The position numbers and the translations under genes were made by a program. Shown here in pieces: positions 1 through 50,938 of a stretch of DNA of 64,000 nucleotides. The notes under the pieces are model-generated. The model was not told the DNA's origin. It ran no database searches and saw only the letters and a program-made list of their open reading frames with translations. The first letter of the stretch is position 1. Each line of letters starts with the position of its first letter. The stretch comes from Eledone cirrhosa (taxonomy: Eukaryota), in assembly GCA_964016885.1 (NCBI GenBank), contig OZ024740.1:241614001-241678000 (forward strand), in the 5' to 3' direction.

Positions 1-2364
1 AAACACTGAACTATTTAATGGTGTGTTACAATTGAACTGAAATTGGCCGAATTGATAAAAAGCTGACTTGATGGTCAAATAGTTGTTGAATCATGCGGAT
101 AATATCATATGGCCGCCAGTAAGTAAAAAAGCTACTACAGTCGTCATTCGCAATCGAGTATGACTTGATAGAATGTACAATGTTTTCGCTAAAGGTGTTA
201 GCTGCCTGTACACCCATGCGCAGGCACAGATACCCGCTCGACACTCACTCCCTCTTTTGAACAGGGGGAACATCCAGAATGTGACAGTTAGAAGGCTGCA
301 ACAGTACTGGGTTGGTACTTTCTTTATTGAGCCCCAAAAGATGACATCTGTGGGATGACAATGGACCTCTGCGGGATTTGACCTGAGAACGCAGAACAAC
401 TATGCAACAATCCATGTCTCTGCCACGTCAACTTGTCTTATATCACTTGTATTGCCTAGTATCCAATATATCAAGTTCGGCTATTTCTCTGTGTATAACT
501 GTAGCTATGTATTACGTGTAAGTATATTTCATCGTTGTAAGAATTCGGTACACTGATTTTCTGGTTTGCCACACTGTGTTCACGTGTTTTCATTTGTTTA
601 AGGAGGGTGTGCAGAATCACTGAAATCTGTAGGATCGACACGAATTCAAAATTGCTGTGGCACCTTCAACAGTGTAAGGACATTAATATTAGCACTGAAT
701 CATCGCCGAAGATTGAGGTACTAGATTTACTTGTGCCATGTTGATGGCAATAATTCTATTTAGCATTGGTACACGGTCAGTAATTTGGGAGATGGTGAAA
801 TTCGATTATATCAACCTCAGTCCTTGACTGGTACTATATTTCATCGAACTCGGTAGGATGAAAGGCAAAGTAGATCTCTACGAGATTTGAACACAGAAGC
901 CTTTGTCCCATGCTCTAATGATTTTTCCAAACAATCTCCCTTTAATTGTTTTTAATTTTGGCACAAGGCCAACAATTTGGGCGAAGGTAAAAGTGAAATA
1001 TATCGACCCCAGTACTTGTCTCGGAAGGATGAAAAGCAAAGTTGATCTCGGCCAGATTTGAATTCAGAACAATATTAATAGAATTTTGGTTTGAAAGGAA
1101 TTATGGCAATATTAAAAGTGAGATTTGTCAACCTTCTTAATATACCAAGTCAAAGTTTACAATACGTATTTCCAACATAAATACAAACCGACATATTTGA
1201 GGGGAAGGGATCTAGTTGATTATACTGACACCTGTACTTCCCTCGTACTTAATTGTTGACACCAGAAGAATTAATAGTAAAACCGACCTCAGCGAGTTTG
1301 ATCTTGCAGTATAAAAAATGAAATTAAATATCTCAGTTAGACTGTGGAGTTCTCTATCGATTCTGCCAATAAAGCCAATCCCAACTTGTAATGACAAAAC
1401 AATGTAGACCATATCTTAATATTTTCGCAACAGTCATCTTGCTTACATTCTTCCAGTTCAGTGATTTTTACTACACAAAAAGTAATAACAACAATAATAA
1501 AAAAAGAAAACAAAACAAAAGAAAAAAAGAATAGGAAAATATAGTGGAAAAAGAGAAAAAAAAAGAAAAAAAAAGAACGGGAAGGGGAGGGAGTGACAAG
1601 GACTCTAGTGTGTATTTGACCTTTTAATAGGCTGGTTTCGGACCGACGTGGAAGCAATGCAAAACGCATCCAGTTTCCATTAATGGACAAGCACTTGGAA
1701 TTAGAATCAAGCCAGTTATTCAAGTGTTTGCAATTTACACCTTATTTAAAGAATGCTGTTTTGAAATATTTACCTTATATTATTGCATAGATTATGTTGC
1801 TCTTTCTGTCAAATATGGCACATATATGAAGAATTTATATATTTATTTCATTTTTACATTAACATTGTTGTTTCCCTTTTGAAATATAGTCAGAAGTGTA
1901 ATCTGGTATGATCATATGTAATCTAATAACATAATTTAATTTATTAGCTATTGAGTTTGGGCTGTAGAAAGAGTCGTAAACAGAGGGTTTCGTTGAACGT
2001 GACATCCCCATAAAGAAAAAGACGGATAAAAGGCCTATTATAATAGATATATTCAACCAGAGCTGACCTGCGTTTAAACAAGAACACTAACTCAGTTAAG
2101 AATTATTTCTTTATTGACTACAAGGTCCGTAATGGTTACTGATTTAGACACAAGACCATCAATCTTGCGGGATGGGAAAGTCGATTAAATAGACCGCAGT
2201 GCATTACTGGTACTTTATTTTATCGATCATGTATGGATGAAAAGCAAAGCTAACCTCGGCCAGATTTGAAATCAGAACGCAGAGGTCCGTAACTCTACAC
2301 CGCAAAGCATGGTGTCCAATGCTCTACCAATACTGCCAATCCATCGCCCTCGTAACTTAGTTAA

Positions 2365-3065
2365 TAATTGTTTCTACTTTTGGCACAAGGCCAGCAATTA
2401 TCCCACTGCATTACTGGTACTTTATTTTATCGACCCCGTAAGGATGAAAGGCAAAGCTACCCTAGGCCAGATTTGAAATCAGAACGCAAACAGCCGTAAC
2501 TCTATGCCGCAAAGCATGTTGTTCGATCCTCTACCGATACTGCCAATCCACCGCGTAACTTAGTTAATAATAAAAGTGTATTTAGCTTTTATTACTCATT
2601 CAAGCAAGAAGCTATTGAATAACGAACTATTTCCATGTATGCTTGGTATCTTGAAGATAAATACATATTGGAGGGTTCACAGATAGACTTCTTTCCTTCA
2701 TTGATACTTCTACGGTTAAATAGATCTAAACAATGGATAATAGACTATAAATATTTGTGGAGAGTATTTTTACTGCATAATAATTGTTTCTACGTTAGGC
2801 ACAAGGCCAGCAATTACCCAGTGCATTACTGGTACTTTATTTTATCGACCCCGTAAGGATGAAAGGCAAAGTTAACCTCGGCGGGATTTGAACTCAGAAC
2901 GGCAAGGGCCGTAACTCTATACGTCAAAGCATGGCGTCCGACTGCATAATTACTGCATAATAATTGTTTCTACTTTTGGCACAAGGCCAGCAATTACCCA
3001 GTACATTACTTGTACTTTATTTCATCGAACCCCGTAAGGATGAAAGGCAAAGTTAACCTCGGTGG
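2365..3065 (-). mobile_element. Cluster of three tRNA-derived SINE copies (major young family, Deu/Nin-like core)
   Basis: Sense strand has B-box GAGTTCAAATCC, core GCCTTTCATCCTTACGGGGTCGATAAAATAAAGTACCAGT and tail AGAAACAATTATTA; TSDs CGTAACTTAGTTAATAAT and ACTGCATAAT. Other copies at about 5875-6060, 19654-19755, 23320-23413, 35718-35787, 43190-43350 and 46088-46262. Confidence 0.85.
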
Positions 3066-3544
3066 CTCTACGGAGGGCAGACTAATGGTATTTGATGAGG
3101 AAGAGAGAAACTGAAGGTAATGGAGAGTTAATTGCTAATACCACAAGCGTTTAAAAACCACCTTCGGTTGTTAGTTTGCAGGTCTAGAAAGGTTGCTTCT
3201 CATATGGATATGACACTGTAGAGCAGGGGTCCCAAACATGCGGCCCACGACCTTTTTTCTGGCCCGCGACAGAAAAAAGGATAATTTGAAACAGAAAATG
3301 TGTCCCCTTAAATTTTGTACTAATTCACACATCCCACATAATTATCATGTGTGTAGTTATTTTGATGAATATCTATCTATCTATCTAATGACTTATTATG
3401 TTGATACAAGACCACACAAAATGTGTAAAAGACGGAATATTGAAGTGTCGAGGGAATTGACTTCAACATATTACTCATTTTATTAAGCTCAACCCAAAAG
3501 ATATACATTTCACTATAATATAAGGCATTTTGTTTCAGGAGTTT

Positions 3545-3900
3545 ACATATGCTAACAATCTCTCCGTTCCACGTGGGTAGGCCCTTCCTCTGGGATGCTA
3601 CATCTTGTCACACTTTCTCTGGTAGCAGCCTGGTGCGTTCGGTTACAAGCCCAGGCTCTGCTGCCCGCCACGCTGAGGAGGGTAAAATGTCCAAGTGTCG
3701 ACCGCTCTCATAGTTTTGTTGTAGAGTCTGTAACAGTGGAGGCTTCTGACGTTCTTGCCCGGACCACATCCTTGTTCACTGCTATCGGAGTGAAGTTGGC
3801 TATCCGAAGGTGTGAGTCCCGCGACTTGGTGTAGCTATTCTAGCACGTCTCCCTCACCGTCTTCTGGGACAATGTTTTCTCCATCCTGTCAGCAGGGACC
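3545..3900 (+). mobile_element. Degenerate 3' fragment of a CRE-like non-LTR retrotransposon (RLE endonuclease region)
   Basis: Frameshifted translation WDAT..TF..SSL..S...PGSAARHAEEGK..K / VEASDVL...IG.KLA...E.R...HVSLTVFWDNVFSIL resembles the CRE C-terminus (WDAT...AE..K..KY...ET.G...QR.S.A..RGNA). Confidence 0.6.
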
Positions 3901-4882
3901 AAGAGGCGGAGGCTAAGTTAGTTGGAAGTGGAAGATATTATTTCGGACATCACACATATACACACATACTCTACCCTTCCACAGTCCAACGAGTTAATTA
4001 ACTGCAAAACTGTAACAACAGTCGAGTGCTATAATATAGTCTAACATTGATACAGGACAAAACGTTCTTAGAGGGAGGAATACAATTGATATATTAATAA
4101 TATAAGGCAGCAAATTCACAGAATCCTTAGAGCGACTGGCAAAATGCTCTGTGGTATTTATTGTGGCTCTTGATATACATTCTGAGTTCAAATCCTGCTA
4201 AGTTCCTTTCATCTTTCAGGAGTCGATTAAATATAGAACTGATTCAGAATGGTGGTTTGGCGGAATTGTTCAAATGTTAGATAACATTTTTCGCAGTATT
4301 TGTTCCGGATCTTTAGGCTCTGTCTGGCCAGGCATTTGTAGAATACTTCTCTGTAAGTAGACGACAACATGGTGTCATGTATGTAGAAATAACAGCCGAA
4401 GGAAACTACCTTCATACTCTTCCATGAAAACGCCATAACAAAAATAGAATGGAATATATTGAAACTATAACATTAAATTATTATATAACATTAAATTATT
4501 ATATTGTCTTTATTTTTTAATTTGAGAGTCTTACAAAATTTATTGATTTATTACATGTGTGTGTGGTGATATATCCGACAACAATATAAACACTAATATA
4601 TGGAAGATGGGATGGTCACTTCTGGAACTTTCTCAAACTTACATGGAAACTAACTTTTCATCGAAAGTCCAATTGCGGTATTTTCGATAGAATATGCCTT
4701 TACAACGATCAATTCGTGATTATTGTTAAATGATCAATGCCTACCAGATTTGAAAAAGGGGAACACATTGAATAATGTAGCTCTTGATACAATATCTGAA
4801 ATAAATATCACTGCTGGAATGCTTTTGATTATAAGTGTACACATACGAGCATAGTTGACTGAGGGTTACATAACAATAGCTA

Positions 4883-9660: not shown

Positions 9661-9732
9661 ATTACATACTTACATACATACATACATACATACACACATA
9701 CATACATACACATACATACATACATACATACA

Positions 9733-9764
<32 letters not shown>

Positions 9765-9765
9765 C

Positions 9766-10376
9766 ATGGTGGCTACCAACACGTTTTTGAGTACGGCCAC
9801 TACTTTATATCCATGTAGGAGAACTCCTACCGATGCGCTGAACGAGTGTGACTTTTTAGTCTAGCCAGCGACTTGAAAACTCTGGTACAAACACTACACT
9901 TGTGACAATTATTGACACATAGTGCTGGGCCCATGGTACCATGTAACGACAAGTGCAGAGAGATCTCCAGATATAAAGCAATGCTTGTGCCGTGAAGCTT
10001 TTATAGTGAGCAAAGGCACTGCACAAAGCCAGTCCCACTCTCTTAACCAAGATGATATTTACCAAAAGGAAGAACAAGTCAACATCATTGGATACCATCA
10101 GGGTTGCAGGTGTTATATCAGAGTTTTCCTTCTCCTAGAATTCTGCCTTGACAAAGGCTAAGGGGTAATCTCTCCCGGTGATTTTGGATGGCCATTGACT
10201 CTTAAGAGCTCCTTTGCCCTTTGACAGGTTTTGTTTTTAGTCCTGCAGGATGTCCAAAGTCACCCTCCTCACCAAGAAACCTTGGTGGGGTTGCCAGTTT
10301 AGTCGCCAACGACCCTACCATGAGGCAGGTTGTACTGGGACACATGTTACCAGTAGCACCAACTGGTGACCTGACA
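9766..10376 (-). mobile_element. Bipartite non-autonomous RTE derivative, type 2
   Basis: 5' part homologous to the type 1 leader; tail GGCCGTACTCAAAAACGTGTTGGTAGCCACCAT followed by TATG repeats. Parts recur on + at 31842-32010 and 32022-32212. Confidence 0.7.
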
Positions 10377-10414
10377 TAAATACATACATACATGCATACA
10401 TACAGTCATCAGTC

Positions 10415-13400
10415 AGTCAGTCAACGCGATCAGTCGCATACTTTGGTGTGGGAGACTATTTATTAAATTTAAGATGAATACTATCTCCGACAGTAATGCC
10501 ACATCTACAGCCAGGTTGAATAACTGGTTATTCTTCTAACTATCCCTTCTTAAGACACCTTTTATTCGAATTCGTAGAGATATCCGACTAAATACATAAT
10601 TCATTTTACAAGGATTTGCTACAAACAGCATGGCTGAACGCAACATCAACAAAAGAATTAAGGAAGTATCGAAGACAAATAACAGAGTAGGTAATCAAAC
10701 TTTATTCAGTTGTAGCTACAGAAGAAACCGAAATTATAAATCGCATTTCTCTTGGAGTTGCAAACTTAATAATGATTTATTTAATTGTTATAAAATGTTA
10801 AAAAAATCCCTCCATGAATAGAATGAAGCTACACTGGGACAAAATGCACCCAGAGCTAAATTATTTCACAGCGAAACAATTACGCCAACAAGCGACGTTT
10901 GTTGAACGTAAAAATAAGATAAATATTATTAATTGTAAGTCCCCCACAACGAACATGGAATCAACAACACGTGCTACAGATCGCCATGCTACTAGACTTC
11001 CTAGCAGCCAGGTCGAACAGCGTCTTGAAACAACTATGCCTGTAAGAAACTTGACACCACCTGTACCATCTAAGTCTACCTCGAATGCTGGGGAAAACAC
11101 TATCGATAATAATAATAATCGAAGAAATAATAATAATAATCGAATAAATGTGACACCACGTATACCATCCGAGTCTACCTCGACTGTTGTGGAAAATACT
11201 ATCGATTATTGTTTCTACGTTAGGCACAAGGCCAGCAATACCCTGTGCATTACTGGTACTTTATTTTATCGACCCCGTAAGGATGAAAGGCAAAGTTAAC
11301 CTCGGCGGGATTTGAACTCAGAATGGCAAGGGCCGTAACTCTATACGTCAAAGCATAGCGTCCGACCCTCTCCCAATACTGCCAATCCACCGCCCTATCG
11401 ATAATGATAATCAAAAGTATAAACTATTGAAAATTTCCCTCAACGAAATCTTCCAGAGAGAAATTAACTCATGTATAAATATATCTCTTGCTGAACGTGT
11501 TAAAATGACAATGGTGAATAAAAAACCAAATAATGAAATACTACGTGTTATTGACGAAATAGGGGATGAATATTTACGACGGATAAAAACCCCAACATTT
11601 TGGCAAATCAACGCCTATTTATATGCCTTAGCAACGACAGTGAAACATTATCTTTATGATAGCAGAGATATTAACAAAACAGAACACCACCAAAAATACC
11701 ATCATATATAACTAAAATAGAAAAAAAGATTGCTGACCTACGAAAAAACATAGGACATGTGACAATGCTCCTTACATACAAACAAACAAACCTCACTCCT
11801 CATCAACAAAGAGTAAAAAATAAAATAGAGACGATGTTTGGTAACAGTAGAATCAGAACTATCCAATATAAACTGATCACCCTCAAACAAGAATTGAGAT
11901 CTGTTAGCGAAAAACGCCGATACCTGAAGAAGGTGGATGAGAGAAAAATGCTTAATAAAAGATTCAGACGAAACCAAACATCAGTCTATGGAGATATGAA
12001 GCGCAAAATAATAAGTCTCGCTGAGGCCCCATCCCAGAAAGACATAGATCCCTTTTGGAGAAAAATATGGGGTGAAAAGAAGAATTTCAACCAAGAAGCA
12101 GTGTGGCTAAGAGAAATCCGAAAGAACTATTGCTCCTACACTACAACAAAAACATACGAAATAAGTGAGGGTACCCTTGAGACTGTGATAGGAAAACTCC
12201 AAGATAAGAAAACACCAGGAAGAGACATGATTGTCGGCTACTGGTACAAAAAACTAATATTCTATCGGAGGTATCTTACTGACCTCTACCAACAAGTTCT
12301 TAAGGGAGATACACTTATACCAAAATGGTTGACATTAGCACAAACGTTACTGGTCCCCAAGAACAAAGATACCCACTTGGCAAAAAACTACCGACCCATT
12401 GCATGCCAGAACCTGATGTATAAGATGTATACAGCCTGCCTGAACATATTACTCCAAGATCACTGTGAAAATAATAACATCATCACAGATGAACAAGAAG
12501 CTGAAAAGAAAAGGGTTTGGGGATGTGCTGAACAACTCCTAATCAACAAAACGGAGGTGCGACAACTTAGGAGGAATATGACTACAGTCTAGCTGGACTA
12601 CAGAAAAGCTTTAGATTCTGTTCCCCACTCTTGGATGATAGAGGCCCTCCAATCTGCTAAAGTCCCAGACATTATTGTCAGAGCCATAGAGAGGCTGTCT
12701 TCTTCTTGGGCTACTATCCTAAGGTTAAAGACAGGGAGAGAGGACTCTATTTTCAGTGATAAAATAAAATATTGCAGGGGTATATTTCAGGGAGACGGTC
12801 TCTCTGTGATATTATTCAGCGGGGAAAAAGAACAACCCAATCTAGCAACATTGTCATCAATGGCCTCACTGTTTCACTGATATCTGATGAGGAATGCTAC
12901 AGATACCTGGGGATAGATGAGAACATATCCTATAATGGTGTCTGTAATAAAGAACGCGTAACCAGGGAATACTACACCCGATTAAGAAAGATCTGGTCAC
13001 CAGCATGTCATCAGCAGCCGTCCAAAGATGTCATCGCGGTATTATCTACCTATGAGGCATGATGTAGTGTCCAAAACACTGTACAATGCAGTTCGTAAAA
13101 AAGATAGCCCCGATAATAAACATATTAAAAGCTACAGCAATGTGGAAGACATCCACGTACAAAATATGAAAGAGTACTGGTGGAATGTTCCAGTAAAACC
13201 CCCATTAAAATGCAGGCATAACAGACCAGATATTATGATATGGGACAGGGATAAGAAAGCATGCACGGTAGAGGAAATTAGCTGCCCAGAAGATGTCAAT
13301 ATAATATCAAAGATTAGTGAAAGGGAGAATATTTATGCGGAACTGATGAGAAATCTGCAGATACTCTACCCTGATTACACCTTCAGATTTATGCCTGTGA

Positions 13401-13787
13401 TTATTGGGGCACTGGGGTATGTTAGTAACTGCCTCAATACAAATCTTGAGAAAATGGGCTTCACAGGAACAGAAAGAACACAACTAGTTAGGAAATTACA
13501 AGTACAATCCATTAATGGAACAGTAAAAATATGTGAAACATTCCAAAAATGTTGCATCTAATAACTGCATATACACATGTACATATACAAAGCATATACA
13601 CATGCACACATACAAATCAAAACATACAAATCCATACATACAATAACATCCATATCTACACATGCATGCATACATAATCTAACTAGTTGATGTTGTGTAA
13701 ATTCCAATGAGAGAGTATTGAGTCTATGTTAGAAACAGACTCTCTCTCTATTGGTAAAACATTTGTGAAATTATAAAACCAGAAGAA
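10415..13787 (+). mobile_element. R4/Dong-clade non-LTR retrotransposon, family A copy 1 (degenerate, internally deleted)
   Basis: RT motifs NYRPIACQNLMYK and RGIFQGD; RLE domain RHD...RPDIMIWD...EISCP...IIGALG; stops and frameshifts; flanked by (CATA)n. Confidence 0.9.
11208..11396 (-). mobile_element. Full-length tRNA-derived SINE inserted into R4 copy 1
   Basis: TSD TATCGAT(T/A)AT; the site is empty in R4 copy 2 (about 15372). Confidence 0.9.
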
Positions 13788-13802
13788 CATACATACATAC
13801 AT

Positions 13803-14221
13803 ATGAAACTGATGAGGAATCTGCAGATACTCCACCCTGATTACACCTTCAGTATTATGCCTGTGATTATTGGGGCACTGGGATATATTAGTAACTACCA
13901 CAATACAAATCTTGAGAAGCTGGGCTCCACAGAAACAAAGGGAATATGGCTAGTTAGTAATTTACAAGTACAATCCATCAGTAAATGGAACAATAAAAAT
14001 ATGTAAAACATTCCAAACATGTACAGATACAAAGCATATACACATGAACACATACAACTCAAAACAAACACATCCACGCATACAATAACATCCATACCTA
14101 CACATATATGCATGCAGGCATGCAGACATATCTACCTATTTGATGTTGATTTTTGTGTGTATGTTAGAAACCGACCCTCTCTCTATTGGCAAACATTTGT
14201 GAAATTATAAAACCAGAAGAA
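13803..14221 (+). mobile_element. 5'-truncated 3' end of R4 family A
   Basis: LMRNLQILHPDY...IIGALG plus the same 3' UTR ending AAAACCAGAAGAA then (CATA)n. Confidence 0.9.
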
Positions 14222-14621
14222 CATACATACATACATACATACATACATACATACATACATGATGGCTGCCCCCTCGTTATCGAGTATGGCCATTGCTCGA
14301 GGAGAAAGAAAAAAAAAAAAAATAATAATAAATAAAAAAATAAAAATATATATATATATATACATATACATACACATATACACACACACACATACATTAA
14401 TATCAATAATAATAATAATAATCATAACAACAATAATAATAACGACAACAACAATAATAATATACATATACATATATATATACACACACGCACACACATA
14501 AGCATATCTACACAGACACACACACACACACACGATAGCAACTAACAGCGCTGCGATCGAATGTGGCTTTTTAGCCCAGCCAATGATCTAAAATGTCTTG
14601 CACATACATACATACATTGAC

Positions 14622-17600
14622 AGTCAGTCAACGCGATCTGTCGCATATTTTGGTGTGGGAGACTATTCATTAAATTTAAGATGAATACTATCTCCGACAG
14701 TAATGCCACAACTACCACTCATGTTGAATAACTGGTTATTCTTCGAACTATATCGATTGAAGACACTTTTATTCGAATTCATAGATATATCCTACTAAAT
14801 ACATAATAAATCTTACAAGGATTTGCTACAAACAGCATGGCTGAACACAACAACATCAACAACATTAAGGAAGTACCGAAGAAAAACAACGAAAAAGGTA
14901 AAGAAAATTTATTCAGTTGTAGCTACAGAAGAAACCGAAATTATAAATCGCATTTCTCTTGGAGTTGCGAACTTGATGATTTAATTAATTGTTATAAAAT
15001 GTAAAAAAAAAAAAAAATCCCTCTGTTGGCTATATGAACAGACTGAAGCTACACCCAGAGCTAAATCACTTCACAGCGAAACAATTACGCCAACAAGCGA
15101 CGTTTGTTGGACGTAAAAATAAGATATTTTTACTAATTTATTAATTGTAAGTCCCCCACAACAAACATGAAATCAACAGCACGTGCTACAGGTCGCTATG
15201 CTACTAGACTTTCTAGCAGCCAGGTCGAACAGTGCCTTGAAACAACTATGCCTGTAAGAAATTTGACACCACGTATACCATCTGAGAGTACCTCGACTGT
15301 TGTGGAAAACACTATCGATAATAATAATAATAATCTAAGAAATTTGACACCACGTGTGTTGTGGAAAATATTATCGATAATGATAATAATCAAAAGTATA
15401 AACAATTGAAAATTTCCCTCAACGAAATCTTCCAGAGAGAACTTGAACATGTATAAACATTTGTCTTGCTGAACGTATTAAAACAACAATATTTAATAAA
15501 AAAAAAACAAATAATGAAATAATACGTGTTATTGACGAAATAGGGGATGAATATTTACGACGGATAAAACCCCAATATTTTGGCAAATCAATGCCTGTTC
15601 ATATGCCCTAGCAACGACAGTGAAGTATTATCTTGGTGATAGCAGAGATATTAACAAGAACAAAACACCACCAAAAATACCATCATATATAACTAAAATA
15701 GAAAAAAAAGAGTGCTGACCTACGAAAAACCATAGGATATGTGACAATGCTCCTTACATCAAACAAACACAAAAAACTTCACTCCTCACCAACAAAGAGT
15801 GAAAAATAAAATAGAAACTATGTTTGGTAACAGTAGAACCAGAACTCTTCAATATAAGCTGATCACCCTCAAACAAGAATTGAGAGCTGTCAGCGAAAAA
15901 CGCCGATACCTGAAGATGGTGGATGAAAGAAAAGTGCTTAATAAAAAAATTCAGACGAAACCAAACATCAGTCTATAGACATATGGAGGGCAAAATATTA
16001 AGTGTCACTGAGACCCCATCCCAGAAAGAGATAGATTCCTTTTGGAGAAAAATATGGGGTGAAAAGAAGAATTTCAAGCGAGATGCAGTGTGGCTAAAAG
16101 AAATCCAAAAGAACTATTGCTCCCACACTACAATAAAAACATACGAAATAAGTGAGGATACCCTTGAGAATGTGATAGGAAATCTCCAAGAAGAAACATG
16201 ATTGTCGGGCTACTGGTTCAAAAAACTGATTTTTCTGTCGGAGGTAACTTACCGACCTCTACCAACAAGTTGTCAATGGAGATACACTTATACCAGAATG
16301 GTTGACATTAGCACAAACAATACTGGACCCCAAGAACAAAGACACGCAGTGGTAAAAAAACTACCGACCCATTGCATGCCAAACCTGATGTATAAGATGT
16401 ATACAGCCTGCCTGAACCTATTCCTCCAAGATCACTATGAAAATAATATCACAGATGAACAAGCAGCTTGAAAGAAAGGGGTTTGGGGGTTTGCTGAAAA
16501 ACTCTTAATCAACAAAACTGCGATGTCGGAGGTGCGACAACTTAGGAGGAATATAGCTACAGTCTGGCTGGACTGCTTCTGATTCTGTTCCCCACTCTTG
16601 GATGATAGAGGCGCACCGACTTGCTAAAGTCCCAGACATTATTATCAGAGCCATAGAGGAGTTATCTTTTTCTTGGGCTACTATCCGAAAGTTAAAGACA
16701 GAAAAGGAGGACTCTATTTCCACTGATAAAATAGCATATCATAGAGGTATATTTCAAGGAGACAGTCTCTCTGTGCTACTATTTATCATGATATTAACCC
16801 CTTGTCCTTTCTGATCAAGAAATGTGAAGGATACATCATTGGCTCACAGGAGGACTGAAATATATACCTAACCCATAATTTCTTTGTGGATGACCTGAAA
16901 CTCTATGCCAAGAACATGGATGGGATGAAGAAAAATCTTGACCTTGTTAACTGTTTCACCGATATCTAATGAGGACTGCTACAGATACCTGGGGATAGAT
17001 GAGAAAATATCCTATAAGGAACGCGTAACCAGGGAATATTACACCCGATTAAGATAAATATGGTCATCGGAACTCTCTGCGCACAGTAAAACAGTGGCTC
17101 ACAATGTGTTTGCTGTGCCTGTCCTAACACCAACGTTTGGAATACTCAATTGGACGATAGATGAAATCCGAGCAGTTGATGTTGGAATTCGAAAAATATT
17201 AAACAACGACGGAAACTTCCACATCCACAGTGACATAGACCGCCTTTACTTGAAACGTAAGCAGGGAGGTAGAGGCCTAACTTCAGTCCAGACAGCATTT
17301 GAATGTCGCATCATATCTCTCCGACAATACGAACCTCGAAGCGTAGGAGCCCGTTTCTCGAGCATGTCTATCTGCATGAAACAGATAAGATCATGATAGT
17401 TGGGAAGGAATTCCTCGAAAGATATTTCCTGTGTGATAATCAAAAACACACACCGAGGGAAGTTGCTCAGCAGTATCGCAGTGAACCCATGGATGAAAAA
17501 CTCCATGCTTATCATGGATATGTTTCCAGGAAGCTCCAGAATGAGAGTAATATAGATAAAGAAAGTAGTCTATCTTGGACTAACAACCGCTATATTGGCT

Positions 17601-18531
17601 CCCACTGTGAATGATCCGCTTTTGTAACCCACGAACAGGAAATCAACACAAAATACCTGATTCACAAAAGAGATAGGGATGCAGGCCAAACAGATATATG
17701 TGAAAGCAAGTGCAGACTCTGCAGATTTAACATCGAAGATGTCACCAATGTTATAAGCAGCTGTCCAAAGATGTCATCGTGGTACTATCTACATATGAGG
17801 CATCATGTAGTGGTCAAAACACTGTAGATTGTAATACGTAGAAAAGATAGCCCCGATAATAAACACATTAAAAGCTACAGTAATGTGGAAGATATACATA
17901 TGAAAGAGTATTGTTGGAATGTTCCAGTAAAAATCCCAATCAAATGCAGGCATAACAGACCAGATATAAGGATATGGGATAGGGAAAAGAAGGTATGCAC
18001 AGTAGTGGAAGTTAGCTGCCCAGCAGATGCCAATATAATTTCAAAGATTAGCGAAAAGGAGAATATTTATGCAGAACTGATGAGAAATCTGCAGATACTC
18101 CACCCTGATTACACCTTCAGATTTATGCCTGTGATTATAGGGGCACTGGGATATGTTAGTAACTACCTCAATACAAATTTTGAGAAGCTGGGCTTCAGAG
18201 GAACAGAAAGAACACAACTAGTTGGGAAATTACAAGTACAATCCATTAATGGAACAGTAAAAATATGTAAAACATTCCAAAATTGTTGCATCTAATACTG
18301 CATATACAATGTTGCATCTAATACTGCAGATACAAAGCATATACATATGCACACATACAACTCAAAGCATACACATCCACACATACAATAACATCCATAC
18401 CTGCACACACATGCATGCATGCATATCTAACTAGTTGATGTGTAAATTCCAATGGGAGAGTCTTGTAACTATATTAGAAACCGACTCTTTCTCTATTGGC
18501 AAACATTTGTGAAATTATAAAACCAGAAGAA
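14622..18531 (+). mobile_element. R4/Dong-clade family A copy 2 (near full length, degenerate)
   Basis: Same 5' end AGTCAGTCAACGCGATC; RT with FFVDD; decayed CCHC-type finger (CRLC...SC); RLE RPD..E motif; 3' end AAAACCAGAAGAA then (CATA)n. Confidence 0.92.
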
Positions 18532-18565
18532 CATACATACATACATACATACATATATGCATACA

Positions 18566-19110
18566 TTGTCATCGGAACATTCTGCGCACGATAAAATAGT
18601 GGTTCACAATGTGTTTGTTCTGCCTGTCCTAATATCAACGTTTGGAATACTGGAGTGGGCGATAGACAAAATCAGAGCAAAAGACGTTAAAACTCGAAAA
18701 ATCCTAAACAATACCGCAAACTTCCACCTCAACAGTGACATAGACCGCCTCTACTTGAAACGTAAACAGAGAGGCAGAGTGCTAACATCAGTCCAGACAA
18801 CATTTGAATGTCGCACCATATCCCTCCATCTACTGAGCAAGCCTGTCTACATGAAACAGATAAGATCATGAGAGTTGGAAATTGCCCAACAGTACTGCAG
18901 TGAATCCATGGATAAAGAACTGCATGCTTATCAGCAAATGATCATGCATGGATATGTTGGCAGGAAGCTCCAGAGTGAGAGTAATATAGAGAAGGAAAGT
19001 CTTGGTATCTTGGACCAACAACCGCTATATTGGCTCCCATTCTGAAGGATACGCTTTTGTAACCCAAGAACAGGAAATCAACACAAAATACCTGATTCAC
19101 AAAATACAGG
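18566..19110 (+). mobile_element. Internal fragment of R4 family A
   Basis: Homologous to 17065-17665 (HNVF..PVL..TFGIL.W, DIDRLYLKRK). Confidence 0.85.
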
Positions 19111-19147
19111 CAAAACACCTAGATGTGACAACTCCCACCAAGGCAAT

Positions 19148-19336
19148 AATTGTTTCTACTTTAGGCACAAGGCCAGCAATTACCCAGTGCATTACTGGTA
19201 CTTTATTTTATCGACCCCGTAAGGATGAAAGGCAAAGTCAACCTCGGAGGGATTTGAACTCAGATCGTAAAGGGACGTAACTATGCTGGAAAGCATGGCA
19301 TCCGACCCTCTACCGATACTGCCAATCCACCGCCCT
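19148..19336 (-). mobile_element. Full-length tRNA-derived SINE (major family)
   Basis: Consensus-like copy with TSD AGGCAATAAT. Confidence 0.9.
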
Positions 19337-19364
19337 AGGCAATAATAACCTACGTACATACACA

Positions 19365-19620: not shown

Positions 19621-19849
19621 CTCACACACACACACACATATATATATATATAATAATTGTTTCTACTTTTGGCACAAGGCCAGCAAATTACCCAGTGCAT
19701 TAGTGGTACTTTATTTTATCGACCCCGTAAGGATGAAAGGCAAAGTTAACCTCAGCTCTGTCTAGCTCTACAACTCGATACTGACGTGAACCTAAACATC
19801 GGGTGCTCACCCGGGTGAACCTACAGTAACTCCGCGTTACACTCCCTGG

Positions 19850-19988: not shown

Positions 19989-20117
19989 ATATTTATTAAA
20001 ATAACAGATTAAAGTTTAAGCAAAGAATCACTGCTTTCAGCCTTAACGGGATCTTCAGAAGATCCCGTTAAGGGTGAAAGCAGCGATTCTTTGCTTAAAC
20101 TTTAATCTGTTATTTTA

Positions 20118-20125
<8 letters not shown>
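19989..20125. repeat. Near-perfect palindrome (68-bp arms) next to (TA)n, Penelope-like
   Basis: Centre at 20057, two mismatches; the minus strand reads CTGAAGA-TCCCGTTAAGGCT-GAAAG. Confidence 0.85.
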
Positions 20126-20154
<29 letters not shown>

Positions 20155-20202
20155 GGAAGTTTAGTAAAATCGAAGCTTCGGCTGTAGATATATATATATA
20201 TA

Positions 20203-20450
20203 TTAGGTAGTAACATGTGCTTATGACATTTTTGACTAAATAGAATTCGTCTGTTAGTAGGGATTTTAAAATATCCTCTGAATGGAAAAAAGGATAAGTA
20301 ATGACGTACACGGCAAACCAAAGATGTGGGTTCGTGTCCCATGTACGTCAATACTCATCCTTTTTTTCCATTCAGAGGGTCTTTTAAAATCCCAACTAAC
20401 AGACTAACTCTATTTAGTCAAATATGGCGTAAGCACACGTTACTACCTAA
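20203..20450. mobile_element. MITE-like element with about 105-bp imperfect inverted arms
   Basis: TTAGGTAGTAAC...GTTACTACCTAA with paired arms and a roughly 30-bp spacer. Confidence 0.6.
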
Positions 20451-20502
20451 TCTTCAAATTCACTAGCCGTTTATAAACAAAGCCTGCTTTGTGTTTGTGT
20501 CT

Positions 20503-27329: not shown

Positions 27330-30300
27330 AGAATGTCTACTGGAACATTCCACCAGTACTCTTTCATATTATGTATATGTGGATGTCTTCCACATTGTTG
27401 TAGCGTTTAATGTGTTTATTATCGGGGCTATCTTTTCTACGGATTGCATTGAACAGTGTTTTGGCCACTACATCATGCCTCATAGGTAGATAGTACCGGG
27501 ATGACATCTTTGGACAGGTGGGTGACATCTACGATGTGAATTGTGCAGAGTTTGCACTTGTTATCACATCTATCTGTATGCCTGCATCCCTATCTCTTTT
27601 GTGAATCAGGTATTTCGTGTTGATTTCCTGTTCTTGGATTGCAAAAGCCTATCCTTCAAATTAGGAGACAATATAGCGGTTGTGGGTCCAAGATAGACTA
27701 CTTTTCTTATCTATATTACTCTCACTCTGGAGCTTCCTCGTAACATATCCATGCATGATTATTTGCTGATAAGCATGCAATTTTTGATCCATGGATTCAC
27801 TGCGATAGTGCTGAGCGACTTCCCTGGGTGTGAGATTTTGATTATCACACAGGGAATATCTTTCGAGGAGTTCCTTCCCAACTCTCATATTATTATCAGA
27901 TAGACTTGCTCTAGAAACGGGCTCCTACGCTTCGAGGTTCGTAGATGTTGTCGGAGGGATATGATACGACATTCAAATGCCGTCTGGACTGATGTTAGGC
28001 CTCTGCCTCCCTGCTTACGTTTCAATTAGAGGCGATCTATGTCACTGTTGATGTGGAAGTTTCCGGTGTTGTTTAGTATTTTTCAAGTTCTAACATCAAC
28101 TGCTCGGATTTCGTCTATCGTCCAATTGAGTAGTCCAAACGTTGGTGTTAGGTCAGGCACAGCAAATACATTGTGAGCCACTGTTTTGTTTTGCGCAGAG
28201 AGTTCCGATGACCATATCTTTCTTAATTGGGTGTAGTATACCCTGGTTACGCGTTCCTTATTACAGATACCATTATGTTCTTATCCCCATGTATCTGTAG
28301 CAGTCCTCATCAGATATCGGTGAAACAGTTAGGCCATTGATGACAATGTTGCTAGATTGGGTTGTTGTTTTTCCCCGTTTTACAGTCATATATGAGCATT
28401 TATCTTGGCCAAACCCCATTCGTATATCCTTTGAGAATGTTGTAACCAGGTCAAGATTTTTCTTCATCCCATCCATGTTCTTGGCATAGAGTTTCAGATC
28501 ATCCACAAAGAAATTATGGGTTAGGTTCGTATTTCTGTACTCCTGTGAGCCAATGATGTATCCTTCACATTTCTTCATCAGAAAGGACAAGGGGTTTAAT
28601 GACAGGATAAATAATATCACAGAGAGAGACTGTCTCCCTGAAATATACCCCTGCGCTATTTTATTTTATCAGTGAAAATAGAGTCCCCCCCCCCCCTCTC
28701 TGTCTTTAAGTTTATGATAGTAGCCTAAGAAGAAGACAGCTTCTCAATGGCTCTGATAATAATGTCTGGGATTTAGCAAGTTGGAGGGCCTCTATCATCC
28801 ATGAGTAGGGAACAGAATCGAAAGCTTTCCTGTAGTCCAGCCAGATTGTAGCCATATTCCTCCCAAGTTGCCGCACCTCCAACATCGCAGTTTTGTTGAT
28901 TAAGAGTTGTTCAACACATCCCCAAACCCCTTTCCTTCCAGCTGCTTGTTCATCTGTGATGATGTTATTATTTTCAAAGTGATTTTGGAGGAATAGGTTC
29001 AGGCAGGCTGTATACATCTTATACATCAGGTTCTGGCATGCAATGGGTCGGTAGTTTTTTGCCAAGTGGGTGTCTTTGTTCTTGGGGACCAGTAATGTTT
29101 GTGCTAATGTAAACCATTCTGGTATAAGTGTATCTCCCCTAAGAACTTGTTGGTAGAGGTCGGTAAGATACATTCGATAGAATATCAGTTTTTTGTACCA
29201 GTAGCCGACAATCATGTCTCCTCCTGGTGTTTTCTTATCTAGAAGTTTTCCTATCACATTTTCCAGGTTATCCTCACTTATTTCGGATGTTTTTGTTGTT
29301 GTGTAGGAGCAATAGTTCTTTTAGATTTCTTTTAGTCACACTGCATCTTGGTTGTAATTCTTCTTTTCACCCCATATTTTTCTCCAAAAGGAATCTATGT
29401 CTCAGTGACACTTATTATTTTGCTCTTCATATCTCTATAGACTGATATTTGGTTTCGTCTGAATCTTTTATTAAGCACTTTTCTTTCATCCACCTTCTTC
29501 AGGTATCGGCGTTTTTTGCTGACAACTTTCAATTCTTGTTTGACGGTGATCAGCTTATATTGAAGAGTTCTGGTTCTACTGTTACCAAACATCGTCTCTA
29601 TTTTATTTTTCACTCTTTGTTGGTGAGGAGTGAAGTTTTTTGTGTGTTTGTTTGCATGTAAGGAGCATTGTCACATATCCTATGGTTTGTTGTAGGTCAG
29701 CAATCATTTTTTGTATTTTAGTTATATATGATGGTATTTTTGGTGGTGTTTTGTTCTTGTTAATATCTCTGCTATCACCAAGATAATGCTTCACTGTCGT
29801 TGCTAGGGCATATAAACAGGCGTTGATTTGCCAAAATTTTAGGGCTTTTATCCGTCGTAAATATTCATCCCCTATTTCGTCAATAACACGTAATATTTCA
29901 TTATTTGTTGTTTTTTTTTTTATTAAATATTGTTGTTTTAATACGCTCAGCAAGACAAATGTTTATACATGTTCAAGTTCTCTCTGGAAGATTTCGTTGA
30001 GGGAAATGTTCAATTGTTTATACTTTTGATTATTATCATTATCGATAGTATTTTCCACAACTGTCGAGGTAGACTCGGATGGTACACCTGGTGTGAAATT
30101 TCTTCGATTATTATTATTGTTTCTTCGATGATTATTATTATATACGATAGTGTTTTCTCCAGCATTCGAGGTAGACTTAGATGGTACACGTGTGTTAAAT
30201 TTCTTATAGGCAGAGTTGTTTCAAGGCACTGTTCGACTTGACTACTAGGAAGTCTAGTTGCATCGCGACCTGTAGCAGGTGTTGTTGAATCCATGTTTGT

Positions 30301-30843
30301 TGTGGGTGACTTACAATTAATAATATTTATCTTATTTTTACGTTCAACAAACGTCTTCTTCTTGAATTGTTTCGCTGTGACGTGATTTAGCTCTGGGTGT
30401 ATTTCGTCGCAGTGTAGCTTCATTCTATTCATATAGCCAATGGAGGGATTGTTTTTTGCCATTTAATAACAATTAAATAAATCATTATTAAGTTCGCAAC
30501 TCCAAGAGAAATGCGATTTATAATTTCGGTTTCTTCTGTAGCTACAACAGAATAAAGTTTGTTTACCTTACTTGTTTTTCTTTGGTATTCTACTAATGTT
30601 GTTGTTGTTGATGTTGTGTTCAGCCATGCTGTTTGTATCAAATCCTTGTAAAATGAATTATGTATTTAGTCGGATATCTCTATGAATTCGAATAAAAGGT
30701 GTATTCAGTGGATATAGTTAGAAGAGTAACCAGTTATTCAACATGACTGGTAGTTGTGGCATTACTGTCGGAGATAGTATTCATCTTAAATTTAATGAAT
30801 AGTCTCCCACATCAAAATATGTGAGTGATCGCGTTGACTGACT
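27330..30843 (-). mobile_element. R4/Dong-clade family A copy 3 (3' end missing)
   Basis: ORF pieces WLDYRKAFDSVP and HNFFVDDLKLY; 5' end AGTCAGTCAACGCGATC preceded by (CATA)n on its sense strand. Confidence 0.92.
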
Positions 30844-30874
30844 ATGTACGTATGTATATATGTATGTATGTATG

Positions 30875-31350
30875 TTGATTTTGGACACCCCGCAGGACTA
30901 AAAACAAAGCCTGACAAAGGGACGAAGAACTCATAAGAGTCAATTGCAATCCCAAAATGTGTAAATATGTATATACATGTATGCATGTGTATGTATATGT
31001 GCGGGGACATAGAAATAATTGGGCAGGATACCCGATCACGCGGTTAAACCACTGGGAGTGAAGGACCTCTAGCCTTTGCCAGGGCATTCTTCTAGGAGCA
31101 GGCAACCCTGGCATCTGGGATAACTCCGACATAAAACCTGCGGCTGAGTAGTTACCGATGATGGTGATCTTTTCTTCTTTTCTGGTTATAGCTACTGTCG
31201 CTCAGAGAGTAGGATTGGCTCAGTGCACAGTCTTTCCTCAGAAAAAAATCTTCACACACATGTATTGCACGATAGTATTAATTGATAATTATTAATAATA
31301 TTATATCGTGCAATGGCCATATCTGATAACGAGGGGGGGGGGGCCATCAT
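30875..31350 (+). mobile_element. Bipartite RTE derivative, type 1 (5' truncated)
   Basis: Reverse-complement homologue of 9150-9660, flanked by (TATG)n. Confidence 0.75.
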
Positions 31351-32211
31351 GTATGTATGTATGTATGTATGTATGTATGTATGTATGTATGTATGTATGT
31401 ATGTATGTATGTATGTATGTATTCTCTTTCTCTTAATTTCGAGTATATTTTTTTGACCGGCCACCTTCCTGGTGGCAAGGTTGTAAAAGAAAAGAAATTG
31501 TCATCCCTTGAATCGCAAGAATGTTTTGCAAATTTTGAAGGTGCCAGCTATCGCAGCCATTTGTAGACTATGAATTAGGGAGCTGCGCTTTTTGTCCGCA
31601 AATCCAAGTTCTGTCATACTTTGGTCCAAGCGGGTTGGTATATAACCCGTAGCACCAATAATGATGGGTATGAAGCTAAAGGTGTATCTTGGATACTGGA
31701 TTTGTATGTATGTATGTATGTATGTATGTATGTATGTATGTATGTATGTATGTATGTATGTTATATCTCTTACTCTTAATTTCGAGGATGTATGTATGTA
31801 TGTATGTATGTATGTATGTATGTATGTATGTATGTATGTATGGGCCCAGCACTATGTGTCAATAATTGTCACAAGTGTAGTGTTTGTACCAGAGTTTTCA
31901 AGTCGCTGGCTGGACTGAAAAGTCACACTCGTTCAGCACATCGGTAGGAGTTCTCCTACATGGATATAAAGTAGTGGCCGTACTCGAAAACGAGTTGGCA
32001 GCCACCATGTATGTATGTATGTCAAAGGGCAAAGGAGCTCTTAAGAGTCAATGACCATCCAAAATCACCGGGAGAGATGACCCCCTTAGCCTTTGTCAAG
32101 GCAGAATTCTAGGAGAAGGAAGACTCTGATATAACACCTGCAACCCTGATGGTATACAATGATGTTGGATTGTTCTTTTTGGTAAATATCATCTTGGTTA
32201 AGAGAGTGGGA

Positions 32212-32490
32212 CACACTGCACATCCTGTCTGTCACGCAACCTGACTAGGACGTAGTCCCCAAAATGCCATTCCTTAGATGCAGGATGTATCCATGTGGTC
32301 TTAAGTTTGTTCTTTTGTTGGAACATGGTGTTGGTAACACACAGATCCAGCTCCTCATACATCTGCAGCAGGAGCATACCATTGTTGTTACACTTTCCCA
32401 CCCCATGCCTTCCGATTACATTCCATGTGTTAAAATCCCTACCCACTAAAGTCACCAAGCACGATGACTTTGTCTGCCTGAGTGATATTT
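32212..32490 (-). mobile_element. RTE apurinic endonuclease fragment, inverted relative to the adjacent RT
   Basis: IGRHGVGKCNNNGMLLL..L.VTNTMFQQKNKLKTTW.HP.SK.WH..DYVLVR is typical RTE/BovB APE sequence. Confidence 0.85.
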
Positions 32491-34041
32491 CTTAAAACAC
32501 CTGATAAGTTCCTTGCTTTAGTTAGGTCTTTCCATGAAGACTTGGGTTAATGTCGGAGGTAACATGTCGGAGCCGATCTCGGTAAAAAATGGAGTGAAAC
32601 AGGGGGATATTCCAGCACCGACCCTGTTTGCCATATACTTTGCAATGGTTTTCTATATTGCATTCAGAAATTGCGAGCATGGTGTTTACATCCGATATCG
32701 AACCTCAGGCAGCATATTTAACATCAGGCGCTTTGCTGCGAAGACAAAAGTATTTACATCAATCATAAGAGACCTCTTGTATGCAGATAATTGCGATCTT
32801 GTAGCGCACACAGAGAGTGATATGATGCACATTTTGAATACATTTTCCGATGCTTGCACTGCCCTAGGATTGACTGTCAGTCTCAAGAAAACCGTAGTCA
32901 TGTACCAACCTGCCCCTGGTAAGCAGTACAGTGAACCAAATATCTATGTTTATGGTAAACAACTTAGAGTGGTTGATCAGTTTGTCTACCTGGAAAGCAC
33001 TGTCAATCGATACAGCAACCTTGATAGTGAAATCCCACTCAGGATTAGGAAAGCAAGTGATGCTTTCGGAAAGCTAGAAAGGCGACTCTGGGGTCGGCGA
33101 GACATATGCAAGAAGACAAAGGTAAAGGTGTACAAGGCATGTGTGCTCTCTTGTCTTCTTTATGCCTGCGAGACCTGGGTCACATATCGACACCACCTTA
33201 AGCAATTGGAGCGTTTCCATCAGATGTGTCTCAGACGGATCCATGGCGTTCACTGGAGAGTCACATCAGTGATGTCGAGATTTTGGAAGGCTCTATGTGT
33301 GACAGTATAGAAGCTCTTGTGGTTAAGCAACGACTCCGTTGGAGTGGTCACCTTGCCAGGATGAAGGATTCTAGAATACCAAAATAACTCTTTTATGGAG
33401 AGTTAGTTAAAGGAAAACGACCGCCACATAAACCAAATAAGAGGTTTTAAGGATTCCTTGAAAGCCTCTTTGAAAGACGCTAACATCTCTGCCGATACAT
33501 GGGAAAAAGTTGCTGCTGATCGTAATAAATGGAGAAAGACTGTATATGAGGGAAAAGTTGCCTTTGAGGCATCTCGAATCGCATACGAGAAAGTAAAGCG
33601 GGATGTGAGGAAGGGCATTGCTGTTGCACTTCCAGACAGCGAAGGTCCTCCTATGGTGTTGACATGCAGCGTCTGTGCGAGACTCTGCCTAAGCAAAGCT
33701 GGACTCGAAAGTCATCTTCGCAGTCATAAAGTAAGACCAGTGATTGACTACCAGGCTGCTGTTGGAGATGCTACTTATCAAGCTTGCCAAGCATGTGGTA
33801 GAGAATGTAAATCAGCAGGAGGGCTCAAACGACATGCAAAAGTACATGAACTCCAACCACAGCCGCCTATTCCAAGTGAATGTCTTGGTTGCCGACTCTG
33901 TGCAAGACATTTTAGATCATTGGCTGGACTAAAAAGCCACATTCGATTACAGCGCTGTTAATTGCTATCATGTGTGTGTGTATAGATATGTTTATGTGTG
34001 TGCGTGCGTGTGTGTATAGATATGTTTATGTGTGTGCGTGC

Positions 34042-34086
<45 letters not shown>

Positions 34087-34260
34087 TATATATTATTATT
34101 ATGTTGTTGTTGTCGTTATTATTATTGTTCTTATTATTGTCCCCTACATGTCGGCCCTTGTGGCTAATAAATGAAATCATTATTGTCATTATTATGTACG
34201 TTCTTTTTTTTTCTCTCGTGTAATGGCCATACTCGATAACGAGGGGGCAGCCATCATCAT
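32490..34260 (+). mobile_element. RTE (BovB-like) LINE, 3' half: RT plus three C-terminal C2H2-type fingers; pseudogenised
   Basis: GVKQG..PAPTLF; LLYADN (catalytic YADD mutated); frameshifts; CxxC...HxxxH repeats; 3' tail GCCATACTCGATAACGAGGGGGCAGCCATCATCAT then (GTAT)n. Confidence 0.9.
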
Positions 34261-34624
34261 GTATGTATGTCAGGGCATTCTTCTAGGAGACGGCAACTCA
34301 TGAAACTGGGATAACTCCGATATAAAACCTGCGGCTCAGTAGTTACCGATGATGTTGATCTTTTTTTCTTTTCAGATTATAGCTACTGTCGCTCAGAGAG
34401 TGGGATTGGCTCAGTGCACAGTCTTTCCTCACTTTAAAAAATATCTTCAAGCACAGGCATTGCACGATAGAATTAATTAATAATTATTAATAATGGTATA
34501 TCGTGCAATGGCCATACTCGATAACGAGGGGGAAGCCGTCATCATGTATGTATGCACGTATGTGCGAACGTACGATCGTACATACATATGTATGTATGTA
34601 TGTAAGTATGTATGTATGTATGCA

Positions 34625-50200: not shown

Positions 50201-50450
50201 TCTCTCCTGGTGACAACATAGTCAAAACAATTTGTGGTGTTTCTTCTGTTACATATTCATTTCTATCCCTTTCTGATATTGGTATTCTCAAATTTTTTTC
50301 AACATTCTTCTTAATTTCATATAACTCTGCATCTGTTAGTCTCTTGTTTCTATAATTATCTCTTCTTATATTTGTAAGTTTGTTTTGGTCTCATTTCTGG
50401 ATTTTTTTCCCTCCATAAAGTAAGTATTTGTGTTGTACAGAGAGGGTATT
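47245..50450 (-). mobile_element. R4/Dong-clade LINE, family B (degenerate) with a (TAA)n tail
   Basis: WIDYKKAFDS, HLFFVDE, and RLE ANRPDIILKD...IDMSVP...K..KY...VVVGALG...LRKILSI; the 3' UTR ends in (AAT)n. Confidence 0.88.
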
Positions 50451-50938
50451 TGGTAAGCTGTGCTATTAGTTTGAGAGTGTGTAACATAGGATGTTAACTG
50501 TACCAAGCAGTGCTATATTTGAAGCTATAAGTCATGACATTTTCTTTAAGCTTGAAACTGTAGGCTGGTAAATAAATGTCTAAAAACATACTCACCAACT
50601 ATTTAGACAATATATAGTGATCCAATGAGACAGCCTGTGTGCTTTCATTTGTCCTGTTAGAAACAGTAGCCACATCATACTCAAATCATAACCTACTGTT
50701 TTACAAAATGAACGACATATTGGAAAATGGAATCTTAAATATATGAAAAAGGGTTGACCACAGCTTCAACGCTTTTTGAATTAAGTCTTTTCAATCAGGA
50801 TTGTCTTGTTAAATACCAACAACAAAGATGATATTGACGTAAACAGCAACCAGATATAAGGGCAAGGACAACGGTGTTGTTTTCTTCCTAATCTGTTGTC
50901 AATGCTAAGTAATAGTAACCTTAAGTGAAATGTCTTAC

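Follow-up and report, generated by a model that had tools for sequence, protein, structure and literature searches.

An R4/Dong-like retrotransposon family of Eledone cirrhosa appears to target (CATA)n microsatellites strand-specifically and shares its tracts with other elements

Among retrotransposons with a preference for simple repeats, Dong, DongAg and DongBg target TAA and Waldo targets ACAY (PMC3812793). For Dong, (TAA)n is the target in most insects, molluscs and cnidarians and the protein carries a divergent Myb/SANT-like domain (PMC7998251), while 5′ ribozymes resembling that of hepatitis delta virus (HDV) have been reported for Dong and R4 (PMC3774820). Furthermore, (TG)n-specific Togen and microsatellite-specific HERO families are described (PMC4640811), and RTE elements create microsatellites (PMC2887409). 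Dong-R4 elements are also reported from cephalopods (PMC13282606, PMC8967140), where those of Octopus vulgaris show high abundance and recent activity (PMC13282606, Table 1), and the portions of these two papers covered here give no target for them. Here we analyse 64,000 nucleotides of Eledone cirrhosa (GCA_964016885.1, contig OZ024740.1, positions 241,614,001 to 241,678,000; hereafter the window), for which an initial annotation had proposed that an R4/Dong element, family A, targets (CATA)n microsatellites strand-specifically and stacks in tandem. Microsatellite targeting and self-stacking as such are already known, and what is new is the CATA target and the branch of elements that uses it. 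Our literature search, which left out Repbase and Kojima and Fujiwara 2003/2004, found no CATA or CTTA target for R4/Dong, and novelty in print is not established because these sources lie outside the search.

Family A was analysed through a working reference of 4,134 bp with one 1,238-codon frame, built from 15 full-length copies; full-length copies are 95-99% identical to it. The single open reading frame (ORF) holds, in this order, an N-terminal helical domain, a reverse transcriptase (RT; motifs YRPI and FVDDLK), a CCHC knuckle (C-x2-C-x8-H-x4-C) and a PD-(D/E)xK restriction-like endonuclease (RLE; motif PD...E). The flanks of a similarity-chosen sample, comprising 69 fetched loci and the window, were scored for the (CATA)2 8-mer within 30 bp. 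Copies truncated within the ORF (reference 23-3842) were preceded by the sense 8-mer in 41/55 cases and by the antisense one in 0/55, with three matches below 75% identity and at least two false junctions retained among the 55. Sense (CATA)2 likewise marked 28/30 full-length 5′ ends, 6/10 copies truncated in the untranslated region (UTR) and 81/84 intact 3′ ends, in comparison to 1/10 broken 3′ ends. In the background, 199,400 30-mers drawn from 20 stretches of 10 kb at even spacing, the 8-mer occurs at 0.9% sense and 1.7% antisense, and CATA at family A ends is hence far beyond chance.

As these loci had been picked by similarity, a positional sample was drawn from the first 51 exact family A termini on the contig that contains the window (C1). 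Here 28/42 truncated copies carry the sense 8-mer upstream (30/42 by a looser rule with a background of 3.6%) and none the antisense, together with 5/5 full-length copies, 2/4 UTR-truncated copies and 51/51 3′ ends. Across the assembly (3.0 Gb, 1,796 contigs), there are 5,392 exact matches to the 22-nt 3′ terminus, 3,969 of them with CATACATA directly after. Since copies truncated at random points are mostly preceded by sense (CATA)n and never by antisense, the repeat is not just the terminus of the element, which settles a doubt raised with the first proposal.

Two further families of the same genome serve as comparison. Family B, a second RLE family of 4,223 bp with a 1,169-amino-acid ORF and 4,516 exact 3′ motifs genome-wide, shows sense CATA at 24/28 truncated 5′ ends, 16/16 full-length 5′ ends and 45/50 3′ ends, and again no antisense. 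The ORF is intact in 10/20 long-frame copies fetched, with a mean pairwise identity of 99.7%, and the family is very young and the best experimental subject; loci L181-L190 are family B copies, many of them with the intact 1,169-amino-acid ORF, which in L181 occupies 1232-4738. Family C (L201-L220), TAA-flanked and Dong-like with intact 1,216-amino-acid ORFs, functions as a control: truncated copies follow TAA in 10/18 cases and CATA in 0/18, and 23/23 3′ ends run into TAA. Separately, the truncated family C copies L134, L208 and L219 were found to be preceded by (GAA)n rather than TAA, and the tract of family B locus L191 also contains 3′ stubs of about 16 bp that look like abortive priming events.

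These counts bear on whether the association could have arisen passively, by random insertion followed by retention or recombination in repeat-rich regions, an explanation put forward for Waldo-A/B in the vicinity of CA repeats in Drosophila (PMC3812793), and some arrays here are indeed local duplications (L320, L331). Such accumulation cannot, however, yield zero antisense flanks or, in 3,969 copies, a 3′ register exact to the base, and it leaves unexplained why family C occupies a different repeat and why (TA)n is avoided: (TA)n covers 10,206 bp of the 200 kb background against 372 bp for (CATA)n, a 27-fold excess, and pure (TA)n is present at just 1/42 truncated 5′ flanks (L330). Moreover, the pattern is cleanest in the youngest copies, those of family B. 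We regard passive accumulation as largely refuted, with next to no probability left to it.

Within the window, the initial annotation had placed three 5′ ends behind sense CATA (about 10415, about 14622 and, on the minus strand, about 30843), three 3′ ends (13787, 14221 and 18531) passing directly into (CATA)n, and truncated copies directly behind the tract of the preceding copy, and these placements were all reproduced, the truncated copies starting at 13804-13807 and 18568. The description of the 5′ ends as intact is accurate for the termini and not for the copies, every one of which is broken by frameshifts, stops or internal deletions. Copy A1 (10415-13787, plus strand), about 96% identical to the reference with both termini present and a broken ORF, follows an imperfect plus-strand (CATA)n at 10374-10404 and extra CAGT units; alignment to the reference reveals internal deletion of reference 2240-2467 and of 2650-3343 and, as a gap, an insert of about 185 bp resembling a short interspersed element (SINE) at 11210-11394. 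A plus-strand (CATA)4 at 13788-13803 separates A1 from A2 (13804-14221, plus strand), an older, 5′-truncated copy (reference 3686-4134) of 80% identity, followed in turn by (CATA)n at 14222-14260 (plus strand). Further downstream, (ACAT)4 (14602-14617, plus strand) precedes A3 (14622-18531, plus strand), near full length at 88-89% identity with many frameshifts and stops, and with a zinc-knuckle and RLE remnant inside 17327-18292. An imperfect plus-strand (CATA)n at 18532-18566 then leads to A4 (18568-19132, plus strand), of about 82% identity, 5′-truncated at reference 2646 and lacking the 3′ end from reference 3309; the span first given, 10381..18560, holds in its coordinates, and this fourth copy extends past its end to 19132. 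The remaining copy, A5 (27338-30841, minus strand; 91% identity), has an intact 5′ end behind (CATA)n in its own sense (30843-30875, minus strand), has lost the 3′ end from reference 3540, and retains an RT domain detected by Pfam RVT_1 (E 4e-8 and 5e-7). The 3′ motif AAAACCAGAAGAA is positioned at 13775-13787, 14209-14221 and 18519-18531, with 16, 39 and 35 bp of (CATA)n directly after.

The proposed tandem stacking stands for two pairs, A1/A2 and A3/A4, which abut through CATA tracts of 16 and 35 bp, and not for a single four-copy chain, as about 400 bp of other DNA lie between A2 and A3. Part of this is a spacer (14261-14601) with an antisense 3′ end of Y, an element related to X (see below), then poly(A), (AT)n, (AAT)n, (AC)n and a repeat fragment. 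Each pair consists of a less diverged full-length copy upstream and a more diverged truncated one downstream (96% vs 80%, 88% vs 82%), and the former is therefore probably the later insertion, into the tract upstream of the older copy. Over 13500-14800 none of the best 8 of 1,527 pieces bridges any junction by 31 bases per side, so that the array assembly is without independent confirmation.

Next we considered whether the tract was present before the element. Shared variant 8-mers were counted between the two flanks of a copy (89 of 145 copies have variants on both sides) and compared with 5000 shuffles, and the flanks of one copy share locus-specific impurities: 121 vs 73.9±16.2 (17/5000 shuffles). 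Family B alone gives 68 vs 28.8 (0/5000), and individual loci are instructive, with clear sharing at L067 of family A and further examples at L199 and L200. From these sequence patterns, the data support splitting of a pre-existing tract by the insertion for family B, and suggest it for family A.

The contrary explanation, that the element makes CATA itself, as its own termini or by RT slippage or template jumping at both junctions, with no target preference at all, draws on a 3′ UTR that is itself CATA-like (reference about 3900-4040), on 5′ junctions with extra letters and on the fact that no empty site was seen. On the other hand, the tracts precede truncation points anywhere in reference 23-3842, with a median length of 31 bp over 94 5′ junctions, the 5′ register is variable, and the impurities common to both flanks at L067, L199 and L200 are specific to the locus; in addition, the upstream tracts often end at the 5′ end of an opposite-facing X element (17/94). 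We therefore judge self-made tracts to be very improbable.

The junctions themselves differ between the two ends. The 3′ register is near-fixed, reading ...GAAGAA|CATA in most of 85 ends, while the 5′ register varies, with extra letters, and truncated ends often share short microhomology with the repeat. Shortened 3′ ends are also joined via microhomology (AAAACCA|TACATA, CCAGAA|CATA), and a recurrent 5′ truncation at reference 3503, an internal TACATA (L024, L030, L070, L084, L313), is consistent with microhomology-driven joining to the repeat. A second CATA is absent from some 3′ flanks (3/84 in family A; L192 and L199 in family B), indicating that no fixed (CATA)2 tail is imposed.

On this basis, we consider it likely that the CATA orientation is fixed by the family A protein itself, through recognition of the repeat and a nick in its (TATG)n strand from which reverse transcription is primed. 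The nick would fall at 5′-TATG^TATG-3′, with an ambiguity of 1 nt, target-primed reverse transcription (TPRT) would start there from the 3′ end of the RNA, and the cDNA would join the upstream part of the tract via microhomology. By analogy with R2, the repeat may be read by the N-terminal three-helix (Myb-like) domain together with the knuckle/RLE region, and read-through CAUA on the RNA may aid priming; in R2Bm, the target is read by Myb/zinc-finger and RLE regions, and 3′ homology helps and is not required (PMC10499050). Each insertion would leave tract on both sides, such that later copies of A and B, and on the other strand the RTE-like SINE, could insert alongside and build polarised mixed stacks; some arrays are lengthened by local duplication.

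An alternative that shares the pre-existing tract assigns the choice of site mainly to a (CAUA)n RNA tail annealing to (TATG)n ends, with a loose endonuclease or host breaks supplying these ends. Pairing of the tail alone accounts for strand polarity and the fixed 3′ register, R2 TPRT in vitro is improved by 3′ homology (PMC10499050), and both the higher frequency of CATA on the 3′ than on the 5′ side and the microhomology joints of shortened 3′ ends agree with it. Conversely, target type follows the protein tree (2 changes, TAA vs CATA/CTTA, compared to 4.6 when shuffled), although tail and protein are inherited together; in several young copies the local impure pattern resumes after a single CATA (L192, L199, L100); and the knuckle and RLE catalytic motifs are kept. 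Tail-driven selection thus appears unlikely to us.

Recognition by the element's own protein also has to be reconciled with several observations that speak against it. No true empty site was found: in the contigs of run X1 (share 0.23) none of the best 15 of 414 joints skips locus L072, while one 658-bp contig matches its 3′ junction with no differences. A search for paralogous empty sites of 128 copies in 1.14 Mb produced solely repeat-to-repeat junctions, with a CATA tract between the same neighbours, yet these are not true orthologues. In family A alone, impurity sharing does not reach significance (53 vs 43.9±12.7, 1210/5000), and composition ranks of upstream and downstream tracts are uncorrelated (p 0.43-0.84). 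The CATA rate is lower at 5′ (67-75%) than at 3′ ends (96-100%): the 8-mer is missing from 14/55 and 14/42 truncated 5′ flanks, about 7 and about 9 of which, by reading, hold no CATA-like sequence at all, where later deletion or insertion is our guess. At least 4/42 positional copies are local duplicates, leaving 25/38 sense flanks without them. Finally, none of 40 fetched family A copies has an intact ORF (the longest is 939 amino acids; locus L063 carries a natural 882-amino-acid ORF piece), and profile searches of the Myb-like N-terminal domain returned no Pfam or PDB match.

The position of family A among RLE elements was assessed by IQ-TREE over RT-RLE (22 of 41 rows) and by FastTree on all 41, in alignments that include no verified named R4, Dong, HERO or NeSL and which are rooted from outside solely by one incomplete, long-branched RTE row. 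Family A, family B, CTTA elements and a protein of Argonauta hians, the closest named protein match, form one 100/100 branch apart from all TAA elements and the Bombyx protein P0119 (unverified as Dong), and FastTree agrees. RT-RLE identity amounts to 55% between A and B, which form one clade in 44% of bootstrap trees, and to 31-34% towards family C and P0119. Among metagenomic relatives, for which ends were read at 27 of 80 loci, the five closest include three flanked by (CTTA)n (L221, L222, L225; 43-49% identity to B), at both ends in L222; no repeat is seen at L223 and L226, and most of the more distant relatives have (TAA)n. The related branch uses (CATA)n and probably also (CTTA)n. We lean, with moderate confidence, towards A and B being members of an old, undescribed R4/Dong-like branch that extends beyond this genome and whose protein specificity moved from (TAA)n to C[A/T]TA tetramers. 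The branch shares the motifs RN-R-[DN]-Y before the N-terminal Trp, itself invariant in 9 aligned rows, and SSRYYLP[ML]RHD after the knuckle, which may be candidate specificity positions.

Structurally, the AlphaFold model of family B (predicted local distance difference test score, pLDDT, 79) contains three helices at residues 22-74 (pLDDT 76-87), and a single-sequence fold of the N-terminal domain was poor and unusable. The model best matches R2 TPRT structures (Foldseek E 1e-31; VIA Z 29.6, root-mean-square deviation 4.4, 776 aligned), and a PDB sequence search returned R2 proteins only, 5 of 177,635 sequences. The likeness to R2Bm and R2Tg, from which the TPRT model is taken (PMC10499050), extends over RT, thumb, knuckle and RLE at 17-20% identity; R2 in contrast carries C2H2 fingers at its N-terminus and targets 28S rDNA, while family A has no N-terminal zinc finger and microsatellite flanks.

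Dong of Bombyx mori, DongAg, DongBg and ostracod Dong1/2 belong to the R4 clade (RepeatMasker class Dong-R4). Like them, family A encodes RT and a C-terminal RLE in a single ORF that lacks zinc fingers at the N-terminus and has a helical segment there with a conserved Trp, and it inserts into a microsatellite and stacks on itself. It differs by its separate branch and its (CATA)n target, the (TAA)n of Dong sensu stricto being found at family C and at neither A nor B. No HDV-like 5′ ribozyme was detected by Rfam or a strict descriptor in A or B, the descriptor being negative in the TAA family C as well and thus without a positive control; Rfam matches (mir-297 and similar) were dismissed as microsatellite artefacts. 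Togen (NeSL-related) and HERO are likewise microsatellite-specific RLE elements, and by their descriptions belong to other lineages with other repeats (PMC4640811).

The ACAY target of WaldoAg1/2 and WaldoFs1 includes ACAT (PMC3812793), which matches the (ACAT)n flanks of family A. Members of the R1 clade, the Waldo elements have a two-ORF layout with an apurinic/apyrimidinic endonuclease (APE), whereas family A has one ORF and a C-terminal RLE, with neither APE nor C2H2 zinc fingers in the N-terminus (by inspection of A and B, and Pfam on the A pieces of the window). As Waldo are APE-type elements of another clade, the shared ACAT target would be convergent. The initial assignment to R4/Dong stands in part: the architecture and structural matches fit an R4/Dong-like RLE retrotransposon, and membership of the named R4/Dong group is unproven.

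Stacking was further assessed with the first 100 family A termini on C1. Neighbours lie less than 5 kb apart in 15/99 cases against 0.95 expected, and such neighbours share a strand in 14/15 compared with 42/84 for distant pairs. Of the 94 5′ junctions, 10 have a tract preceded by the 3′ end of an A copy, 5 by that of a B copy and 17 by an X-type end. Identical truncation points (L331, L320, L309/L310, L335/L338) denote local tandem or segmental duplications, which lengthen arrays without new insertion. A fixed stacking direction was rejected, as the 22 informative pairs, some of them duplicated, comprise 8 with the younger copy upstream and 14 with it downstream. The head-to-tail arrays originally envisaged are borne out in their same-strand clustering, and stacking is real but mixed, composed of A, B and the opposite-facing RTE-like SINE plus local duplication, rather than family-A-only.

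This SINE, X, is a 608-bp non-autonomous element with a 3′ hairpin and a C2H2 remnant, which we take to be RTE-like from its motifs and its likeness to an RTE C-terminus in the window. In the window, X occupies 9765-10372 (minus strand), facing opposite to family A, and a plus-strand (CATA)n at 9663-9762 lies between two X-type elements. X has 22,251 exact 3′ motifs genome-wide; in positional samples, (TATG)2 precedes 7/12 and (CATA)2 precedes 2/12 of its truncated 5′ ends, and just 8/21 3′ ends are flanked by (TATG)2, the others mostly by (AT)n-type repeats. X was accordingly rejected as builder of the tracts, since it takes the local repeat, and is a looser co-tenant of them. X and Y, both RTE-like and non-autonomous, share the 3′ hairpin and, at 9765-10372, 31843-32205 and 34230-34545, face opposite to A and B within (TATG)n/(TA)n/(TG)n tracts. 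A (TATG)n tract also marks the start of an RTE ORF piece in L092, which hints at an RTE lineage with a preference for repeats.

More than 5,000 A, 4,500 B and 22,000 X copies use the microsatellites of this genome as common insertion sites with a set polarity, a point relevant to the annotation of repeats and to the design of microsatellite markers. How site-specific RLE retrotransposons switch targets is an open question, of practical weight since R2-type proteins are developed for gene insertion; a screen of 4,464 genomes (Fell 2025) has been described and recent reviews ask for elements with other specificities (PMC13586686). If the proposed shift of specificity is true, it would show how these retrotransposons change target. 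Intact CATA-type ORFs (the 10 copies of family B) and TAA-type ORFs (family C) in one genome, with CTTA types elsewhere, constitute a natural panel, and their coexistence makes cleavage assays and domain swaps directly possible.

Further features of the window comprise a 5′-truncated RLE/3′ UTR piece of family B (about 31421-31704) and a family B 3′ stub of about 30 bp (about 31761-31790), both on the minus strand between sense (CATA)n tracts, and a decayed, TAA-flanked Dong-like copy of family C at about 47265-50500 (minus strand, 5′ limit approximate), which provides an internal control. The SINE-like repeat of about 185 bp that interrupts A1 is abundant, recurring at about 19147-19340 after A4, at about 19655-19760 and after family C TAA tracts. 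At 32210-33960, an RTE with C-terminal C2H2 zinc fingers (32522-33960, plus strand) is preceded by an APE-like piece on the minus strand (32210-32500), which together look like a 5′ inversion. Two imperfect inverted-repeat elements, similar to miniature inverted-repeat transposable elements, were noted by eye at about 19990-20120 and about 20200-20460, each within (TA)n flanks.

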